This document shows positions 3,629 through 52,130 of a stretch of DNA of 64,000 nucleotides, piece after piece. The translations under genes and the position numbers were made by a program. Source of the DNA: Anaerolineales bacterium (GTDB lineage Bacteria > Chloroflexota > Anaerolineae > Anaerolineales > UBA11858); NCBI GenBank assembly GCA_049644685.1, contig JBARSJ010000131.1, forward strand, positions 307 to 64,306. The letters run 5' to 3'. Position 1 is the stretch's first letter. Each line of letters starts with the position of its first letter. The notes below the pieces were generated by a model, which was not told the origin of the DNA, ran no database searches, and worked only from the letters and a program-made list of their open reading frames with translations.

Positions 3629-3809
3629 GGGTTTACCCTCCCTGAATCAGTTCAGCCATATTTGATCCATACCTGCTGCAGCAAAATCCACAAGAATTTT
3701 GCCCAAATATCCAGGCCAGACCTGCAAGCTGAGTTTAGGTTGGAGTCACCAGGGATGATTTTGTCCCACCGGTCGCCCGGGGATTTGTCATCCATTTAAG
3801 TTAGGAGGG

Positions 3810-3997
3810 AAAAATCGGAGAGTGACAATCTCCGGAGGGCTTCCGCTGATAGTTCGATTTTCCTGACCCAATTGCCCCCGGTCAGTTAGCCTCCATAAAA
3901 GGAGGAACCCTCATCCTCGTCAACTCAAGAACCTGCCTTTTGTCAAATTTATCCGTTTATCTATCCAAATGACAATAAATCTTGAGCCCTTGCGCTA
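3810..3997 (-). ncRNA. Probable glmS ribozyme (GlcN6P-responsive self-cleaving leader)
   Basis: On the minus strand upstream of glmS: AGCGC (the cleavage-site motif A^GCGC, complement of 3992-3996), then a long hairpin closed by CTCAAG...CTTGAG. This is followed by GUUGACGAGGAUGAGGG, matching the conserved GACGAGGA core as I remember it, then CCUCC/GGAGG, CUGACC/GGGUCAG and CGGAGA/UCUCCG hairpins. Boundaries are approximate. Confidence 0.65.
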
Positions 3998-4123
3998 TTT
4001 TCCCAATTTGACCTTTTCCAGTCACCTCCTTCCTCTAAATTATCCGCGAAGGAATATAAGATATTAAGTATTCCCTCGCGGTTGTTATCTTACTCGAAGA
4101 ACCAATTTCCTGCAACCATTCCC

Positions 4124-10355: not shown

Positions 10356-10364
10356 TGCTATACT
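10356..10364 (+). promoter_or_regulatory. Extended -10 box TGCTATACT; candidate promoter reading into cassette array A
   Basis: The same 9-mer family (TGCTATAMT) lies upstream of tRNA-Val, ftsK and the tail-tube-like gene. The identical TGCTATACT recurs at 47647, at a similar distance from the other short attC. Confidence 0.4.
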
Positions 10365-10404
10365 AAAATTGAATCGGGCAACAAAATGGCTGCTATTTAG
10401 GGCA

Positions 10405-10456
10405 AGATAATGCATTATTCTATTATCGCGCAAGTGAAACATAATTAACGTTAGAT
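10405..10456 (+). other. Short attC-like site (A0) at the left boundary of array A
   Basis: 30/32 nt identical to the short site at 47718-47749 (ATTATCrCGCArGTGAAACATAATTAACGTTA). It ends in GTTAGAT (10450-10456). The 5' box is degenerate (GATAATG instead of CATAACG). Confidence 0.45.
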
Positions 10457-10502
10457 GGCACTTCTCTTTCGGTGGCAGCCATCTGGATGAAAGGATGCAT
10501 TT

Positions 10503-11060
10503 GTGGATATTGGAAGAGAGTATGATTCGGCAATCGAGATAATCCGTGAGTACTATGATGGACCAATACGGCCTTATATGACTGTCGAGTTCGGAAGAAG
10601 AAAGAAACAAGGAGCGATTTCATTAATTATTAGCTACTCCAGAGAAATGAACCCCAGAAAGCTGGTTGATATTCTCCAGGATAAACTCCCGGATCAATAC
10701 ATTGCATTCCTTGGAAATGATAAATGGCTCGGTGAAGAAAAGAATAATTACCCTGAGATCGTTATTGCAATAGCATCTTCTCAATTCGAAGCAATAAGAC
10801 TTGCGGAGTCGAGAGGCGTAAACCAAGACGTTTCGACGGAAGAAGTGATAGATAAGCTCAAGGAATATGACAGGAAGTATAGAATCAGGATCTTAAGAGC
10901 CACTATAGAGGCAGTATCATTCAGATTGAAAACTCTATCTGAAGACATGAACGCCCATCTTGATGATCAAGCGGAAACTCTGAAACTCAATACGTATCCG
11001 AGAGAAGAGATCATTTCAGAAATTTCGAAAAAATTGATTGATGGGTTTTGGTGGGACTAG
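10503..11060 (+). CDS. Hypothetical protein (cassette A1); the C-terminal ...GFWWD resembles DUF4253, unverified
   Basis: 185-aa ORF with a GTG start. It is the only long ORF between the cassette boundaries 10451 and 11178. Confidence 0.5.
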   Translation: MDIGREYDSAIEIIREYYDGPIRPYMTVEFGRRKKQGAISLIISYSREMNPRKLVDILQDKLPDQYIAFLGNDKWLGEEKNNYPEIVIAIASSQFEAIRLAESRGVNQDVSTEEVIDKLKEYDRKYRIRILRATIEAVSFRLKTLSEDMNAHLDDQAETLKLNTYPREEIISEISKKLIDGFWWD

Positions 11061-11089
11061 TTACGTTTCATATTATCCAGAATGTGTGA

Positions 11090-11184
11090 GTGCCATCTAA
11101 CAAATCGCTGAAGCGGACGCCTATAGCAGCGGCAAATCCATATCTCGGTCATAGCCGGCGCCGCTTAGCTCAAAGCCGTTAGGC
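11090..11184 (+). other. attC site A1
   Basis: GTGCCATCTAA (11090-11100) is the exact reverse complement of the cassette start TTAGATGGCAC (10451-10461). The 5' arm GCT(G)AAGCGG(A)CGCC pairs with GGCGCCGCTTAGC, leaving two extrahelical bases. It ends in GTTAGGC (11178-11184). Confidence 0.75.
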
Positions 11185-41528: not shown

Positions 41529-41602
<74 letters not shown>

Positions 41603-41720
41603 CTGTCTTGGTCCCATCTCGAACCTCATAGTGAGGAAGTAGAGCAATTCCTGGCAATGCTCAGATTTGAGCAGAAAAGCGAGGTAAAAAGGCTCTCAGA
41701 ATTCCTCAAATGAGGTAGAG

Positions 41721-41960
41721 ATGGGTTCTTCATTTAAAGGCACAAATCCTGATGTAACAGAAGATTACATTACCGTAAAAACTGCATCCAAATTCAGTGG
41801 TTACAACGAACAATACCTTCGAAGGTTATTAAGGGGGGGAATTTTCAAGACCAGAAAGATTGGACAACTCTGGTTGATTGAACAAGCTGATTTTGGAAAA
41901 TACTTTTCTGAAGCTACAAAATCAGATGATAAGCGATTTGGCCCCCAATCAAGTACGTAA
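41721..41960 (+). CDS. Small helix-turn-helix DNA-binding protein (excisionase/MerR-like HTH)
   Basis: 79 aa. The segment ITVKTASKFSGYNEQYLRRLLRGG....RKIG..WLI....F..Y resembles HTH_17/excisionase-family proteins. GAGG RBS upstream. Confidence 0.5.
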   Translation: MGSSFKGTNPDVTEDYITVKTASKFSGYNEQYLRRLLRGGIFKTRKIGQLWLIEQADFGKYFSEATKSDDKRFGPQSST

Positions 41961-41971
41961 CATAATTGTTA

Positions 41972-41977
41972 TATAAT
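41972..41977 (+). promoter_or_regulatory. Candidate -10 box (TGTTATATAAT context) upstream of cassette array B
   Basis: TATAAT with a TG two nt upstream. It lies between the HTH gene and the direct repeats. No convincing -35 box. Confidence 0.3.
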
Positions 41978-41988
41978 ACAGATAAGCA

Positions 41989-42057
41989 GATATCAGTCCA
42001 AATGGACCGATTATTACCGATATCCGGTCCAAATGGACCAATATCTATAGGTTAGCT
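41989..42057 (+). other. attI-like junction: two direct repeats followed by the first GTTAGCT crossover box
   Basis: GATATCAGTCCAAATGGACC (41989-42008) and GATATCCGGTCCAAATGGACC (42019-42039). Each contains the inverted repeat GTCCA-aa-TGGAC. A third, partial AATATC follows, then GTTAGCT at 42051-42057. Confidence 0.45.
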
Positions 42058-45162: not shown

Positions 45163-45792
45163 ATGAGCAAGGATCCATATAGACGGGTTGCAGGTATCTA
45201 TGACAGAATATTCGAGCCCATGAATCGTGGCTTGAGGGTCCTTGGTTTTCGCATGTTCCTTCCACCACGCGGTGGAGCCGTCCTGGATATTGGATGCGGG
45301 ACGGGAATCCACCTTGAGATGTATCAAAGATACAGCTGTAACCTATATGGCATTGATACTTCCCCATCTATGCTCGAACTGGCCAGAGACCGGTTGGGGG
45401 AGAGCGCCGAACTCCGTCAAGCGGATGCGATAAATATGCCCTACGAGACGACCTTTTTTGATCTCGTACTCTGCATGCTTGTGCTGCATGAAATGGATGA
45501 TGAGGCGCGCACAGGGGTTTTGAGTGAGATGAAGCGTGTAATCAAGACCGATGGCCGCGTACTTCTCATCGATTTTCACGCCGGCAAACCACGTTCGTGT
45601 AAGGGGTATTTCTCCAAGTTGGTGATAGTGTTTTCCGAGGTTGCCGCGGGACGAAGGCACTTTCGCAACTATCGTCATTTCATGTCAATTGGTGGATTGC
45701 CAACCTTGATTGACAAGAGTCGGTTCGAAATTGAGAAGACGAGAATTGTAGGCGATGATACCCTTGCCCTTTATCTACTTCGTGGAAAGTGA
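45163..45792 (+). CDS. Class I SAM-dependent methyltransferase (cassette B3)
   Basis: 209 aa. Motif I VLDIGCGTG and a post-I acidic residue (GIDTS). Confidence 0.8.
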   Translation: MSKDPYRRVAGIYDRIFEPMNRGLRVLGFRMFLPPRGGAVLDIGCGTGIHLEMYQRYSCNLYGIDTSPSMLELARDRLGESAELRQADAINMPYETTFFDLVLCMLVLHEMDDEARTGVLSEMKRVIKTDGRVLLIDFHAGKPRSCKGYFSKLVIVFSEVAAGRRHFRNYRHFMSIGGLPTLIDKSRFEIEKTRIVGDDTLALYLLRGK

Positions 45793-45824
45793 AGTAGGCA
45801 AACCATCCTGTCCTCAGGTTAAAT

Positions 45825-45916
45825 CAGGCAAGCTAACGTCTCGCTGGAGCGGACCGCGCGCGAGGCGCTGGAATTGAAGTTGGTGTGTGGGGCTGCTCAG
45901 CTCGAAACTGTTAGCT
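45825..45916 (+). other. attC site B3
   Basis: GGCAAGCTAA (45827-45836) is the reverse complement of the cassette start TTAGCTTGCC (45139-45148). The arm GCTG(G)AGCGG(A)CC pairs with GGCTGCTCAGC. It ends in GTTAGCT (45910-45916). Confidence 0.75.
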
Positions 45917-45926
45917 AGGTCAGAAT

Positions 45927-46037
45927 AAGGTACAATTCAGACAATTATTAAGAAAAATGTATTCGAAAAGTGGTTCGTGATCTGTCCACTAACGTCCACT
46001 AGAATCGCTTGACGAATCCGGCGGGCGATTATTTTTC
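45927..46037 (+). ncRNA. Repeated noncoding module R1: -10-like box, conserved 29-nt motif, terminator hairpin (candidate small transcript)
   Basis: TACAAT (45931-36). Motif GGTTCGTGATCTGTCCACTAACGTCCACT (45972-46000). Hairpin AATCGC/GCGATT followed by ATTTTT (46003-46036). Confidence 0.35.
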
Positions 46038-46143
46038 ATAAGCAGGTTGATTCCCCTTATGCATTGAAAATATTTTTTATTATGCTACTATCAATTTATA
46101 CAGATTAATTAAAGATTACCCACGCTAATCAATATAGCTTTCC

Positions 46144-46181
46144 AAAAAACAATGCCAAAATATAAAGGCATTGTTTTTTTA
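46144..46181 (+). terminator. Rho-independent terminator inside cassette B4, upstream of the aminopeptidase gene
   Basis: AACAATGCC-aaaatataaa-GGCATTGTT followed by TTTTT, and preceded by AAAAAA, so it may work in both directions. Confidence 0.6.
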
Positions 46182-46228
46182 TCAAAACGGCATACTTTAT
46201 GGGAATAAAATCTGGAAGAATAAAACAA

Positions 46229-47476
46229 ATGAAAACCCAAGATTTCGATCAAAAACTAGAAAAATATGCAGAGTTAATCGTCAAAGTCGGATTAAATCTT
46301 CAGCCTGAACAACGACTTTTTCTCACTGCCATTTCACTAGATGTCGCACCCCTCGTCAGGCAAGTGGTGAAAAGTGCCTATAAAAATGGGAGCAGATTGG
46401 TGTCAGTCCTGTGGTTAGACGAACAGCTGGATAAAATCAGGCATCAGAACGCGCCACGCGATTCGTTTGAAGAATTCCCTACCTGGAGGACAGATGGGGA
46501 ACTGCAATGTATTGAGCGTGGAGATGCTAACTTATACATTGTCGGCAGAAACCCTGAATTATTAAAGGACCAGGACCCTAAACTTGTTGCGATTGCTGCC
46601 CGGACTGTAGCTAAAAATAATAAACCAATACTTGGCCATCTGGGGAAAAATTCTATACAGTGGTCCTGTGTAGCTTCACCTACTCCAGATTGGGCCATAA
46701 AAGTGTTTCCAGATAATACACCACAAGATGCAGAAGCGCGATTGTGGGATGCGGTCTTTAAGGCGTGCCGAATAGATGAACCTGATCCAGCCGTTTTTTG
46801 GGAGAAACATCTTGACAATCTTGAAAAAAGAGCAAAATACCTCACTGATAAACAGTACTCAGCATTACAATTTACAGGGCTGGGCACGAACCTCACAGTT
46901 GGTTTACCGGAAGGTCACATTTGGGGAGGAGCCAAAGTTAAAACCCCGTCGAATATTTCCTTTGTAGCCAATTTACCTACAGAAGAAGTATTTACCTTAC
47001 CTCACAAAAATAAGATTGAGGGTACTGTTACAGCAACCAAACCTCTTAGTTATCAAGGCAATCTGATTGAGAATTTCAGCTTTACCTTTTCTGAAGGAAA
47101 AGTTGTTAATTTTTCCGCAGAAAAAGGTGAAGAAACATTGCGCAATTTGCTAGAAACCGACGAGCATGCCAAATCTCTGGGTGAGGTCGCATTGGTTCCC
47201 CATCAGACACCGATCTCGCAATTAGACTTAATATTCTTGAACACGATATATGATGAAAATGCTTCTAATCACCTTGCATTAGGAAATGCATACCGATTCA
47301 CACTTGTAGATGGAAAGACAATGTCTGATGAAGAATTCGAGCAAGCTGGTGGAAATGACAGCCTGATTCATGTTGACTTCATGTTTGGATCTGGCGAGAT
47401 GGACGTAGACGGGTTGCTGGCCGATGGGGTAACAGAACCAGTAATGCGCGCAGGAGAATGGGCATTTGATTTGTAG
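46229..47476 (+). CDS. M29-family aminopeptidase (AmpS/PepS/aminopeptidase T type) (cassette B4)
   Basis: The N-terminal F...L.KYAEL.VKVGLN.Q..Q.L pattern is typical of M29. The C-terminal motif is H.A.G......G.N.S..H.D. The start at 46229 (MKTQDF) is preferred over 46199. Confidence 0.8.
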   Translation: MKTQDFDQKLEKYAELIVKVGLNLQPEQRLFLTAISLDVAPLVRQVVKSAYKNGSRLVSVLWLDEQLDKIRHQNAPRDSFEEFPTWRTDGELQCIERGDANLYIVGRNPELLKDQDPKLVAIAARTVAKNNKPILGHLGKNSIQWSCVASPTPDWAIKVFPDNTPQDAEARLWDAVFKACRIDEPDPAVFWEKHLDNLEKRAKYLTDKQYSALQFTGLGTNLTVGLPEGHIWGGAKVKTPSNISFVANLPTEEVFTLPHKNKIEGTVTATKPLSYQGNLIENFSFTFSEGKVVNFSAEKGEETLRNLLETDEHAKSLGEVALVPHQTPISQLDLIFLNTIYDENASNHLALGNAYRFTLVDGKTMSDEEFEQAGGNDSLIHVDFMFGSGEMDVDGLLADGVTEPVMRAGEWAFDL

Positions 47477-47485
47477 CCTAAAGTT

Positions 47486-47546
47486 AAGGTCCTAACCCGC
47501 GCTGTAGCAAAAGCTAGGATCGCGCTACTGAGCTCATCTGTTAGAT
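47486..47546 (+). other. attC site B4
   Basis: TCCTAAC (47490-96) ... CTGAGCTCATCT-GTTAGAT (47540-46). It carries the family signature at both ends. Confidence 0.7.
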
Positions 47547-47567
47547 CGCTCAAGATAATTAAATTCT

Positions 47568-47630
47568 AAGGTTATAATTAGGAAAAATCTATTAGAAAAG
47601 CGGTTCGTGATCTGTCCACCAATGCCCACA
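47568..47630 (+). ncRNA. Repeated noncoding module R2 (inside ORF-less cassette B5)
   Basis: GGTTATAAT (-10 at 47573-78), then GGTTCGTGATCTGTCCACCAATGCCCAC (47602-29). Confidence 0.35.
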
Positions 47631-47646
47631 AACAAAATAACCCTCA

Positions 47647-47655
47647 TGCTATACT
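47647..47655 (+). promoter_or_regulatory. Extended -10 box TGCTATACT inside ORF-less cassette B5, reading through the short attC into cassette B6
   Basis: Identical 9-mer to 10356-10364. The distance to the GTTA crossover is 90 nt, against 85 nt at array A. Confidence 0.4.
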
Positions 47656-47701
47656 TCTTGCAGAGGGGATAACATCTTTGGATGTTACCTTCCACGTCGA
47701 T

Positions 47702-47752
47702 ACATAACGCCTAAATGATTATCACGCAGGTGAAACATAATTAACGTTATGT
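47702..47752 (+). other. Short attC-like site B5 (51 nt class)
   Basis: ACATAACG / CGTTATGT form an 8-bp outer stem, followed by an internal loop. The inner stem is ATTAT-CAC / GTG-(aaac)-ATAAT. 30/32 nt are identical to 10422-10453. Confidence 0.5.
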
Positions 47753-47920
47753 CCAAAGACTTTTGAAGATCTGCTATTTTAGGTGACCAATTGGAGGAAT
47801 CCTTGTGCCCCCTTTTGTAAAAAGCATGCACCTTTGCCATGATTTCTATTTCGAGTGTTGCTCCGATAATGGAAAGACATTTTCCTGAAATTTGCCGTTA
47901 CCTTAGATGAGGAGTGTTTT

Positions 47921-49153
47921 ATGACGCAGTTGGATTCAAAATTTATCAGAAGTCAATTTCCTGCATTCCAAGAGCCGTCATTAAATGGATGGGGCTTTTT
48001 TGAAAATGCGGGCGGGTCCTATACTTGCCGGCAGGTGATTTCCTGCCTGAACGACTACTATACACAGACTAAGGTTCAACCCTATCATAATTACCCAGCA
48101 GCACAAAAAGCGGGTGCGGCAATGGATGAATCCTACAGTCGACTGGCAGCATACCTCAATGTCAGCGAAGATGAAGTCCAGTTTGGCCCCTCAACCACTC
48201 AGAACCTCTATGTTCTGGCCCAAGCCTTCCGAGAGCTGTGGAACGAGGGAGATGAAATCATCCTGTCCAACCAGGATCACGAGGCCAATGCCGGATTTTG
48301 GAGGCGCCTTGAAAAAACAGACATCGTGATCAAGGAATGGTGCGTTGATTCTGAAACAGGATTATTGAATCCGGATGATTTGGATGCCATGCTGTCCCAT
48401 AAAACCAAGTTGCTGGCATTCCCTCATTGTTCCAATATTATTGGCCATGTCAATCCGGTGACTGAAATCGTATCAAAGGCAAAAGCTGCCAACGTCTGCG
48501 TAGTAGTGGACGGGGTGGCCTATGCCCCTCATGGACTGCCGGACATTGGATCACTGGGAGCAGATATTTACCTGTTTTCCCTTTACAAGACCTGGGGACC
48601 ACATCTCGGGCTCATGACCATTAACAAAGAACTCATGGATAGGTTGCCCAACCAGGGTCACTTCTTTAACAGTCACATTCTTCGAAAAAAGATGCTGCCG
48701 GCTGGCCCTGACCATGCCCAGATCGCTGCCGCTTCTGGTGTGGCCCACTATCTTGATACTGTTTATGAGCACCATTACTCCAAATCGGTGGATCAGGCAG
48801 AAAAAGGAAGGCATCTTAGAAAACTATTCCGGGATCATGAGAGAAATCTGCTGGCAAAGCTCCTGGAATGGTTGCGGCAGCGCGACGATATTTACATTGT
48901 TGGACCAGATGATCCCGAACTACGCGTTCCAACCGTATCGATCATACCCCAAAAGAAATCCATTGATGAGGTCCAAGCGGTACTGACAGCAAATAAACTG
49001 ATGACAGGGCAGGGACATTTTTACGCTGCCCGCCCGTTAATGGGATTGAACATCCCCATTGACACCGGTGTTCTACGATTTTCATTCCTCCATTACACAA
49101 TTGAGGATGAGATCAACCAACTTATTGACGGGCTTTCCACAGCTCTGGGTTAA
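47921..49153 (+). CDS. Class V aminotransferase-fold PLP enzyme (cysteine-desulfurase / selenocysteine-lyase-like) (cassette B6)
   Basis: 410 aa. The motif FSLYKTWGPH is a candidate PLP-lysine site. GAGGAG RBS upstream. Confidence 0.7.
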   Translation: MTQLDSKFIRSQFPAFQEPSLNGWGFFENAGGSYTCRQVISCLNDYYTQTKVQPYHNYPAAQKAGAAMDESYSRLAAYLNVSEDEVQFGPSTTQNLYVLAQAFRELWNEGDEIILSNQDHEANAGFWRRLEKTDIVIKEWCVDSETGLLNPDDLDAMLSHKTKLLAFPHCSNIIGHVNPVTEIVSKAKAANVCVVVDGVAYAPHGLPDIGSLGADIYLFSLYKTWGPHLGLMTINKELMDRLPNQGHFFNSHILRKKMLPAGPDHAQIAAASGVAHYLDTVYEHHYSKSVDQAEKGRHLRKLFRDHERNLLAKLLEWLRQRDDIYIVGPDDPELRVPTVSIIPQKKSIDEVQAVLTANKLMTGQGHFYAARPLMGLNIPIDTGVLRFSFLHYTIEDEINQLIDGLSTALG

Positions 49154-49243
49154 TACGATGAATCCCCGCAGAGTCTGTCTTGAAATCTGTCAGATCAAAG
49201 TACACTCAATTTTTGGAACCTAGGGAAATGGCATATCAAAAAC

Positions 49244-49329
49244 ACCTCATAACCCGCCGGTCAACCGGACAGCAGGGGCTTCCGATCCGCTCCAGCCCTG
49301 CTACTGGTTACCTCTGCGATAGGTTGAGA
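49244..49329 (+). other. attC site B6
   Basis: CTCATAAC (49246-53). GGT(C)AACC pairs with GGTTACC, and AGCAGGG(G)CT pairs with AGCCCTGCT, giving two extrahelical bases on the 5' arm. It ends in GTTGAGA (49323-29). Confidence 0.6.
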
Positions 49330-49347
49330 AAGAAATTCGCTTACTAT

Positions 49348-49447
49348 AGGGTTATAATTCAGGAGAATATTATATAAAGCCGGTTCGAGATCTGTCCACT
49401 AACGTCCACTCAATTACCGCTATTCTAAGAGGGTAGCGGTTTTCTTG
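49348..49447 (+). ncRNA. Repeated noncoding module R3: -10-like box, conserved motif, terminator
   Basis: GGTTATAAT (-10 at 49353-58). Motif GGTTCGAGATCTGTCCACTAACGTCCACT (49382-49410). Hairpin ACCGCTA/TAGCGGT followed by TTTCTT. Confidence 0.4.
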
Positions 49448-49529
49448 TTCTATAATACAATTATACAGAACTGCAACGATACTTCCTGAACATCACCATA
49501 AATCGAACCATTAAACTGGATAACCTACC

Positions 49530-50177
49530 ATGCGAACATATATTCAACTGGAAAACACACATATATATGAACTCCCGGTGGAATTTCAAGATGATGATGT
49601 TCGGTACTCAGAGAGCCTGGTAGAGTATTTTTTAAATAAATATACCAAGGAGAAGGATTTAGTATTTGATCCGTTTGCAGGATTTGGAACCACCCTGTTG
49701 GTTGCAGAGAGAATGGGGAGGATACCCCTCGGTATAGAATTCGATGAGAGTCGCGTGCAGTATATTCAATCGAAGTTGAAGCAGCCAGCCAAAATAATTC
49801 TTGGGGATTCACGTAAACTTAAATCATATAACTTGCCAGCCTTCAACTTCTCAATTACCTCGCCTCCCTATATGAGCAAATTCGATAGAGAAAACCCATT
49901 CACAGCATATACAACAAAAGGAAAAGGCTATTCGGCATATCTTAATGATATTCGATCCATTTATAAACAGATGGCTCATTTAATGGCAACTGATGCAATG
50001 GTTGTTCTAGAAATTGCAAATATCAAAAAAAGAGGCAGTGTCACTACACTTGCCTGGGATATTGCCAAAGAAATATCTCAGGTGCTTCATTTTGAAGGTG
50101 AAATAATTGTGAATTGGGATAATTATGGCGGTGGTTACGATCATAGTTATTGTTTGATATTTACAAATCCAAATTAA
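49530..50177 (+). CDS. DNA methyltransferase (N6-A or N4-C type), no restriction partner nearby (cassette B7)
   Basis: 215 aa. The SAM-binding motif FDPFAGFGTT precedes the catalytic SPPY. Confidence 0.75.
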   Translation: MRTYIQLENTHIYELPVEFQDDDVRYSESLVEYFLNKYTKEKDLVFDPFAGFGTTLLVAERMGRIPLGIEFDESRVQYIQSKLKQPAKIILGDSRKLKSYNLPAFNFSITSPPYMSKFDRENPFTAYTTKGKGYSAYLNDIRSIYKQMAHLMATDAMVVLEIANIKKRGSVTTLAWDIAKEISQVLHFEGEIIVNWDNYGGGYDHSYCLIFTNPN

Positions 50178-50193
50178 CTTCCGATAGAAAGTC

Positions 50194-50281
50194 AGTTCGA
50201 GATCTCCAACACCCTCGTGTTGGAGTCGCAGGATGGGGAAATTGACCTTCCCCTTCCCGCTGATGTCCACCAACGTCCACT
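50194..50281 (+). repeat. Module R4: the conserved motif split by a 58-nt insertion, at the right end of array B
   Basis: AGTTCGAGATCT (50194-205), then a 58-nt insert with hairpins CCAACAC/GTGTTGG and GGGGAA/TTCCCC, then TGTCCACCAACGTCCACT (50264-81). No promoter box is present. Confidence 0.5.
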
Positions 50282-50287
50282 AAGCTA

Positions 50288-50330
50288 AAGCCCCCACCCC
50301 TGGAAAGGAAATGGGGGCTTGCTTTTTATT
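50288..50330 (+). terminator. Rho-independent terminator closing array B
   Basis: AAGCCCCCA-cccctggaaaggaaa-TGGGGGCTT followed by GCTTTTTATTT. Confidence 0.7.
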
Positions 50331-50359
50331 TGGAGGATTTCGTGTGACTTCGAAGATTC

Positions 50360-51424
50360 CTACAAGCGAATCACATCTCCGCAAAACTCACAAGTAATAC
50401 TCTCCATCCCCCGTAGCAGGACCTGATTGATCGCCCCGCCGCAGGAGGGGCATTTTGTTGGTGCATCCTTGACTTTTTTGGCAGCAGCTTGGTCAATGGC
50501 GATGGCTCGCGTGGCGTCAAATTCCTTAGCTTTGGCCCGTTTGAGCAGGGCTTTCCATTCGTCGCCCCTTTGCCAGATGTGCAAATGCAGGAGGTCAAAG
50601 GGCGCACCGCTACTAAAGCGCACCTCGATATAGTCATCTTTATTCAAAAAACCCTCTTTGCGGGCCTTTGTCTCCTCGATCAGCGCTAGGGGGGCCTCCC
50701 AGAGGAGATCCTGGACCAACTTTTTCTCCGTGGCCACAAAAAGCACCTTCTTCGTCGCCACCTTTTCCTTCTGTTCAAAAAGGATCCGCTGGTCGGTCAA
50801 ATACAGTACTCCCTCAGGGTCATCTTTAGACTGCTTGCCGCCCTTCGCCCAAACTGCCTTGACCGCCATGATCCCTGATTCAGTTGCCAGCAGCTCAAAA
50901 CTCGCCTCGCTGAGTTCTGTCAGCATCCATTCCAGTTTGGTGAGATGGTTTTTTACTTTCTGAACCTCGCCGCTGAATTGATCGTATCCCCCGCGGATGC
51001 TTTCCTCCGCTGCCTCGACGCGGCCTTCCAGCGATTCCACCTGGGATTTGAGCTTGCTCACTCGGGGACGCAGGGCCCCCGGCGCTCCGCTTTCTCCCCC
51101 CAACCCCGCGATCTGCGTCTCCAAAGGGCGCAAGGACCGCTCCATGATACTGGCTTCTTTCTCAATCTGCGCTTCGAGTTTGGGCGCGATCCCGGCCCAT
51201 TCTTTTTCAAAATCTGCCGCCATCTCTTCCAATTCTTTCTCGAAAGCATACCCACTCTCACGCAAGGATTCGATCCGCCGATCCATCCCGTTGACAGATG
51301 TACCCAAATCCTCCACACTATCCCGGATCTCCGTCATCCGCACCGAGGATTGTAAATCCCGCAAAGAAGATTGCAGGTTTTGAATATCGTTTTTAACTTG
51401 CTCGGCAAGGCTTTGATTTGACAT
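50360..51424 (-). CDS. Coiled-coil protein with bacterial PH/GRAM-like domain and C-terminal zinc ribbon; unknown function
   Basis: 354 aa. The N-terminal ~180 aa have heptad-like, Glu/Leu/Ser-rich sequence. GVLYLTDQRILFEQKEK is bPH-like. The C-terminus is CPSCGG...CEFCG. GAAGGAG RBS upstream. Confidence 0.6.
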   Translation of the reverse strand: MSNQSLAEQVKNDIQNLQSSLRDLQSSVRMTEIRDSVEDLGTSVNGMDRRIESLRESGYAFEKELEEMAADFEKEWAGIAPKLEAQIEKEASIMERSLRPLETQIAGLGGESGAPGALRPRVSKLKSQVESLEGRVEAAEESIRGGYDQFSGEVQKVKNHLTKLEWMLTELSEASFELLATESGIMAVKAVWAKGGKQSKDDPEGVLYLTDQRILFEQKEKVATKKVLFVATEKKLVQDLLWEAPLALIEETKARKEGFLNKDDYIEVRFSSGAPFDLLHLHIWQRGDEWKALLKRAKAKEFDATRAIAIDQAAAKKVKDAPTKCPSCGGAINQVLLRGMESITCEFCGDVIRL

Positions 51425-52121: not shown

Positions 52122-52130
52122 TGCTATACT
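52122..52130 (+). promoter_or_regulatory. Extended -10 box TGCTATACT upstream of the tail-tube-like gene
   Basis: Same 9-mer as at 10356 and 47647. It lies 70 nt upstream of the ATG at 52200. Confidence 0.4.

Follow-up and report, generated by a model that had tools for sequence, protein, structure and literature searches.

The 64,000-nt stretch of DNA analysed here (the window) carries two arrays of integron cassettes, A and B, and both raise the same question. What is the short sequence, preceded by a promoter-like box, that stands at the head of array A before cassette A1 and recurs inside array B before cassette B6? The initial annotation read the pair as a promoter plus a second, short class of attC, and took the 206-nt stretch before B6 for a cassette without an ORF. 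Much of the underlying layout holds. The box TGCTATACT lies at 10356-10364 and at 47647-47655, the 32-mers at 10422-10453 and 47718-47749 (repeat family D7) agree at 30 of 32 positions, and 85 nt (copy A) or 90 nt (copy B) separate the end of the box from the G of GTT. Positions 47541-47749 contain no plus-strand ORF longer than 21 codons. The ending GTTAGAT is correct for copy A, and copy B ends in GTTATGT. The 20-mer GTGAAACATAATTAACGTTA occurs as two exact copies in the window, against a chance expectation of 0.01. A third TGCTATACT at 52122-52130 was considered as another copy and rejected, as nothing is alike beyond the 9-mer. Genome-wide, the box occurs 33 times where about 24 copies are expected, so the 9-mer alone is meaningless.

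The window lies on contig C131 of an Anaerolineales MAG (G000; 3.17 Mb) that consists of 324 contigs, and long-range context is thus incomplete. The genome is rich in canonical attCs of the type RCCTAAC-CCCC-GCTC(C)ACC...GGTGAGC-TCATCC-GTTAGGY. A whole-genome search with the integron integrase model TIGR02249 (cut-off 265 bits) identified a single full-length integron integrase, on contig C106 (451.6 bits), and an intI stub on C71. It returned no match on C131. Relatives of the G000 integrases are annotated as Anaerolineales/Chloroflexota MAGs.

The identity of the site follows from its neighbors in related genomes. We searched G000, 36 congeners and 30 genomes from ten other genera of the same family for a 19-nt core, TGAAA[C/G]ATAATTAACGTTA, with the reversed pattern as a control that gave no matches. 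There are 15 copies in G000, the core is present in 18 of the 36 congeners, and it is found in none of the 30 genomes from other genera. In six congeners (loci L008, L010, L011, L017, L019 and L025) the core is separated by 150-220 nt from the start codon of a divergently oriented gene of 320 aa. The proteins of L008 and L019 score 469 and 450 bits on TIGR02249, and the other four match the IntI of C106 across about 315 residues. Copies in G000 likewise abut intI stubs, of about 40-43 codons on C71 and about 15 codons on C125. A position beside a full-length intI in six congeners defines an attI. We conclude that the site is very probably the attI of the main integron lineage of this genus, with TGCTATACT as its Pc, and that both copies in the window are remnants of platforms whose integrase is gone. 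The core is of the G variant (TGAAAG...) in all six integrase-linked copies. The window has the C variant, which is linked to an integrase only through the stubs on C71 and C125.

The pattern of conservation defines where the site ends. Across 42 distinct copies, conserved boxes (GATAA.., TTATC.. and the core) lie upstream of the crossover, the information content falls to zero 2-3 nt past GTTA, and all 42 downstream sequences differ. Individual loci place the boundary at the same point. L122, a metagenome contig like L121, is 99% identical to copy B as far as the crossover and unlike it beyond, L121 retains the right side of copy B past the crossover, and L122, L022 and the window differ only beyond G|TT. 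In genome G023, a B6-like cassette start comes after an attC, with homology beginning at the crossover.

L122 was considered as an example of recent cassette turnover, but the sequence on its right belongs to an IS91-like element that includes a tyrosine recombinase, not to a cassette. This element (L122 1479-3403) comprises an IS91-like Y2 transposase gene and a tyrosine recombinase gene and has its insertion point precisely at the attI crossover (GTT|GAACTAAGCGCTTCGCG). Three genomes, represented by L122 and, to the right of the attI core, by L024 and L033, have this element end at the same position.

The site also has a constant relation to attCs. These were searched for with a host covariance model (R1) built from 16 attCs of G000, which represents one attC class and is not the general IntegronFinder model. 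In 30 genome loci (28 from relatives and two from G000), all 16 attCs detected lie downstream of the site and on its strand. The same arrangement is seen on G000 contigs C71, C176, C183, C216 and C259. In the window, the site likewise heads co-oriented attCs in array A and in array B from B6 onwards. The initial annotation had proposed that the unit links the two arrays, and the shared site indeed shows one integron lineage for both.

Copy B is unusual in its location within an array. Upstream of it, on the plus strand as are all features described here for this unit, is the attC of cassette B4 (47490-47546), a cassette whose protein matches Peptidase_M29 (M29 aminopeptidase). This attC is genuine (32.4 bits, E = 4.9e-8 with R1), and its crossover, G|TTAGAT at 47540/47541, forms the left edge of the unit. 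There follows a leader (47541-47601; repeat family D3, 77-86% identity) that is common to the 5' ends of cassettes B4 and B7 and has a TATAAT box at 47573-47578. A module termed R2 comes next (core GGTTCGTGATCTGTCCACCAATGCCCAC, 47602-47629; alignment A3) and resembles a diverged tRNA-Val 3' end. The putative Pc-type extended -10 box at 47647-47655 reads towards the cassettes. Comparative alignments, including A3, place attI copy B at 47668-47752, with its crossover at G47746|T47747. Its boxes are GATAAC (47668-47673), ACATAACG (47702-47709), GATTATC (47717-47723) and the core TGAAACATAATTAAC-GTTATGT. The first cassette behind it, B6 (47747-49324), ends in an attC of 12.1 bits (49247-49324) and carries a class V aminotransferase gene (47921-49153; Pfam Aminotran_5, E = 3e-46). 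The first 150 nt of B6 include a 27-codon remnant (MPPFVKSMHLCHDFYFE..., 47805-47888) left from a gene of which G023 and G019 have intact versions; this makes B6 a fusion of a gene stub and the aminotransferase gene. Copy B heads the sub-array from B6 onwards directly behind the sub-array B1-B4, and array B is thus two arrays joined head to tail.

How did an attI come to lie behind an attC? One possibility is that the site is an attI and that the whole unit is nevertheless a gene-less cassette of the attI type, excised and reinserted by an integrase and so seeding heads and promoters within arrays. The layout is not confined to the window, as an attC lies 170-345 nt upstream of the site in copy B, L121, L119 and C259, and C299 has a GTTAG-ended site of another class at this distance. 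Furthermore, L121 keeps the unit together with B6 while its upstream cassettes differ from those of the window, and IntI1 is able to excise and insert cassettes that end in attI remnants in class 1 integrons (PMC12901181). A mobile cassette should be homologous from the attC crossover onwards, but in copy B, L121, L119, C259 and C299 the first 20-30 nt differ. This makes the mobile unit a minor rival. The window and L121 are 98.5% identical over 1759 nt (blastn), and this block begins at 47631, past R2, rather than at 47541, covering attI, B6 and the B6 attC and reaching into the next R2. Moreover, an attC within 1.5 kb upstream of the site is found in none of the 30 genome loci. We regard excision and reinsertion of the whole unit as unlikely.

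The edges of the conserved blocks instead draw attention to R2. The R2 of the window unit and that of L121 are only 76% identical. In genome G028 (L134), a homologue of B4 is followed by other modules, R2, a terminator, TATAATACAGATA and B7, and the Pc-attI-B6 segment is absent. Together, the comparisons with L121 and L134 indicate that conserved blocks begin at R2 copies. This points to exchange at or between R2 modules, homologous or site-specific, rather than to integrase-mediated insertion. Copy B would thus have come to lie behind the attC of B4 by a rearrangement at an R2 module and not by cassette capture. The junction also bears a deletion relative to its relatives. L121 and L122 carry 72 nt between R2 and the box, consisting of an intrinsic terminator (AAAAAAGCCTGACGATACCGTCAGGCTTTTTT) and a spacer, which are missing from copy B at 47629/47630 (alignment A3). 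With the terminator gone, transcription starting at the leader TATAAT box would also be able to read on past this point.

A second attC class, as first proposed for the short sites, would make the 206-nt unit a mobile, ORF-less promoter cassette captured by an integrase. Copy B does have features that invite this reading. It comes after an attC crossover, ends in a GTTRRRY-like core, and has an 8-nt inverted repeat, ACATAACG...CGTTATGT, spanning 47702-47752, which folds better than shuffled sequences (-7.5 kcal/mol, z = -2.8) into a terminal stem of up to 9 bp around an interior of about 35 nt that is weakly paired. Gene-less, promoter-bearing cassettes are also reported for Vibrionaceae (10.1101/2023.11.21.568050). 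The repeat, however, is private to copy B. Copy A has no such repeat and no fold (-2.1 kcal/mol, z = +0.5), a matching 5' arm for R''/R' pairing is absent from copy A and from most of 50 copies, and the fold of copy B lacks an inner L''/L' stem with extrahelical bases. With R1, the attCs of the window score 12-78 bits, whereas copy B reaches 9.1 bits (E = 3.1), copy A is unreported even at E-values up to 10, and none of the site copies in 42 further loci is scored as an attC. The supposed R'' arm, ACATAACG, is a copy of the conserved attI box (C/G)ATAACGCCTAAGTG, which is also present in the integrase-linked platforms L011, L017, L019 and L025. The hairpin of copy B arises because this box meets the first bases of cassette B6 (TGT). 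The site is conserved across 50 copies in sequence and not in structure, and it stands beside full-length intI genes. The short attC class is refuted, and a captured promoter cassette is extremely improbable. An ordinary ORF-less cassette at this position is likewise not supported. What survives of the proposed arrangement before A1 and B6 is a promoter-like box followed by a recombination site.

That the shared 32-mer is a generic dispersed repeat of the MITE or REP type, with no tie to recombination, has next to no chance of being correct: there are 15 copies in about 3.2 Mb of a genome rich in small repeats, but their orientation to downstream attCs is constant (16/16), conservation stops exactly at G|TT, and the sequence is limited to one genus and adjoins intI in six genomes.

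The attI reading also gives the upstream box a place. Of 50 site copies, 25 have an exact TGCTATACT at a distance of 85-121 nt upstream of the crossover, where chance would account for about 0.04. The variant forms TGTTACACT or TGCTACACT are found in L008, L010 and C217. In L011, L017, L019 and L025, the box is located between the intI start codon and the site, on the cassette strand and about 20-35 nt from the start codon. Its position between the two in complete platforms is that of a Pc-type cassette promoter. A role for TGCTATACT as promoter of the downstream cassettes is plausible given the extended -10 box and its conservation, but a simple sigma-70 consensus scan detected no -35/-10 pair at either box in the window. 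Box and site are placed, as originally suggested, so as to drive the cassettes downstream of both heads. Pc would fire rightwards through attI into the first cassettes, which may lead to transcription of B6 (class V aminotransferase) and later cassettes in array B, and of A1 (DUF4253) and later cassettes in array A.

A second motif, CGATTATA, is conserved to the right of TGCTATACT in L011, L017, L019 and L025 and on C71 and C216 of G000. On the integrase strand it reads TATAAT; it faces Pc at a distance of 3 nt from the Pc box and is plausibly a candidate PintI box. Both copies in the window, and other integrase-less copies of the -90 class, have lost CGATTATA, and the window copies keep TGCTATACT. 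Loss of a putative PintI with retention of TGCTATACT is the expected outcome if selection acts only on Pc once the integrase has been lost.

Copy A (10380-10456, plus strand; crossover G10450|T10451; alignment A4) has no R1 match and heads cassette A1 (10451-11184, plus strand), which consists of a DUF4253 gene (10503-11060) and an attC of 27.4 bits (11095-11184). Its box, on the plus strand at 10356-10364, is orthologous to that of L014 in G017, and homology between the two loci starts 33 nt upstream of the box (alignment A4). Copy A lacks 34 nt of distal boxes, the GTTAT...GATAAC pair, that are present in the G017 homologue. Without these presumed binding boxes, copy A may be inactive. The setting of the platform differs as well. 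In G017 it comes after tRNA-Val(tac) and a small HTH_17 gene, and in the window it abuts instead the upstream region of a gene for an 808-aa membrane protein.

Could the attIs of the window still be used? Only an integrase acting in trans would let attI take up incoming cassette circles at G|TT. The assembly of G000 holds no cognate full-length integrase for this attI. The IntI of C106 is 57-59% identical to the integrases beside this attI in congeners. Integron integrases generally prefer their cognate attI, and at this level of identity the activity of the C106 enzyme on the attIs of the window is uncertain.

The one oddity of these platforms is their linkage to tRNA 3' fragments. Orphan heads tend to stand behind co-oriented tRNA 3' fragments that are followed by terminators. 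R2 occurs in the window at 45972-45999, 47602-47629, 49382-49409 and 50195-50282, as well as in L134 and on C90 of G000, and resembles the 3' end of tRNA-Val from the T-loop to the discriminator. In L022, L118 and L119, a 23-mer in the R2 slot matches the tRNA-Val(tac) 3' end exactly. Behind R2 stands an intrinsic terminator, with a different sequence in each copy, followed by a promoter. The attI copies of subtype 2 come after tRNA-Met-like 3' fragments, and the copy on C217 of G000 comes after a complete tRNA-Asp gene and a terminator. A strict T-arm motif, GGTTCGANTCC, occurs 150-390 nt upstream and on the same strand in nine of 46 attI copies, where 0.27 would be expected, and none of the 46 has it downstream of attI or on the other strand.

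The 3' part of a second leader family, (T)AGCCGAGTAGGAATAAAGCCGTTATCCGCCAGGTCGCAGGTTCGAATCCTGCCGGGCCCA, is tRNA-Met-like. This family is found on C176, C259 and C299 of G000 and in L013, L032, L119, L133 and L134. It lies about 25 nt past attC crossovers and upstream of subtype-2 attIs, and some copies have inserts of 20-100 nt in the T-loop region. Part of L119 (1560-3520, minus strand) contains three co-oriented attI-type sites in a span of 1.8 kb. A gene, an attC and tRNA-like modules are interspersed among them, which makes this a mosaic array with multiple heads. R2 was considered, on account of a similarity in translation, as a remnant of the intI 5' end and rejected, as local alignments of three R2 copies with seven intI-proximal regions were no better than shuffled sequences. 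Neither the unit nor R2 nor the Met-type module matched an Rfam family, whether at the gathering level on the window or at the E-value level on 45700-50400 and eight related loci. Elsewhere in the window, Rfam reports a glmS ribozyme at 3741-4007 on the minus strand (42.6 bits; gathering score 37).

The head of array B itself has a tRNA-associated neighborhood. In the window (41529-42057), in L014 (G017) and on C229 of G000, a conserved spacer and then a gene for a 79-aa HTH_17 (excisionase-like) protein come after tRNA-Val. In the window, this gene is followed by TATAATACAGATAAGC and a GGTTAG| site that heads cassette B1. The same type of site is found at position 7748 of C208 in G000. The head of array B was compared with the intact integron on C106 as its possible attI and rejected, because the two share only a 28-nt promoter-like stretch, identical at 26 of 28 positions to the integrase-proximal region.

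It is conceivable, though rather improbable, that the integrase-less attI platforms of this clade and their cassettes are the cargo of small integrative units, with tRNA genes (Val, Met and Asp) as targets that are entered at the 3' end. Entry into the tRNA would use a recombinase other than IntI. The circular form would read tRNA-3'-like core, terminator, promoter, attI, one or more cassettes, attC and leader, and repeated entry would yield mosaic arrays in which attIs alternate with attCs. Such a pattern is seen in array B, where tRNA-Val is followed by four R2 copies, and in L119 with its three co-oriented attIs. If this is true, integron arrays would spread and multiply without an integrase gene of their own.

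In class 1 integrons, attI1 is composed of the boxes DR1, DR2, L and R, and in the attIA platform of Vibrio cholerae Pc lies within the spacer between intI and attI. The platform described here resembles these complete examples in its location between a divergent intI and the first cassette and in its lineage-specific sequence. It further shares with them a GTTRRRY core preceded by several short repeated boxes, a crossover at G|TT and a promoter directed into the cassettes. Its sequence, in contrast, is unrelated to attI1, attI2 and attI3. Unlike in complete platforms, the integrase gene is gone from the window, there are about 15 copies in one genome, and copy B lies within an array.

The closest known counterparts of the arrays as a whole are CALINs, clusters of attCs without an integron integrase, for which integrase loss has been proposed as one origin (Cury et al. 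2016, PMC4889954). The window arrays fit this class, with attCs and no TIGR02249 match on C131, and they have a recognisable attI and Pc at the head. Cury et al. could not search CALIN heads because attI is unknown for most integrons (PMC4889954). The arrangement around copy B also resembles the delta-attI-type cassettes that are known from class 1 and class 2 integrons and recombined by IntI1 (Gonzales Machuca et al. 2026, PMC12901181), in that one unit within an array has an attC as its left end and an attI-derived site as its right end. Those cassettes contain a resistance gene plus a truncated attI (11-238 bp), whereas the unit of the window has no gene, a full-length attI, a Pc box and a left edge of homology that does not coincide with the crossover. 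Gene-less promoter cassettes reported from Vibrionaceae superintegrons (10.1101/2023.11.21.568050) are similar in being ORF-less stretches within an array that are able to restart downstream transcription. They have an attC on both sides, as described there, and the unit of the window has an attI at one end and derives from a platform.

We conclude that the element is an attI/Pc platform left without its integrase, that it belongs to an integron lineage so far uncharacterised, and that the arrays of the window are CALINs with a recognisable head. The attI and cassette promoter of this Anaerolineales lineage can be read from comparative data alone. Only a handful of integron classes have a known attI, and consequently software cannot tell whether clusters of cassettes without an integrase keep a head. 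Here, both arrays retain the docking site and a putative promoter after integrase loss, and about 15 such orphan heads exist within one genome. A head within an array may restart the expression of distal cassettes. These observations refine the origin of CALINs and the possible expression of their distal cassettes and leave the integron model unchanged, and it is the link to tRNA 3' fragments that deserves specialist attention.
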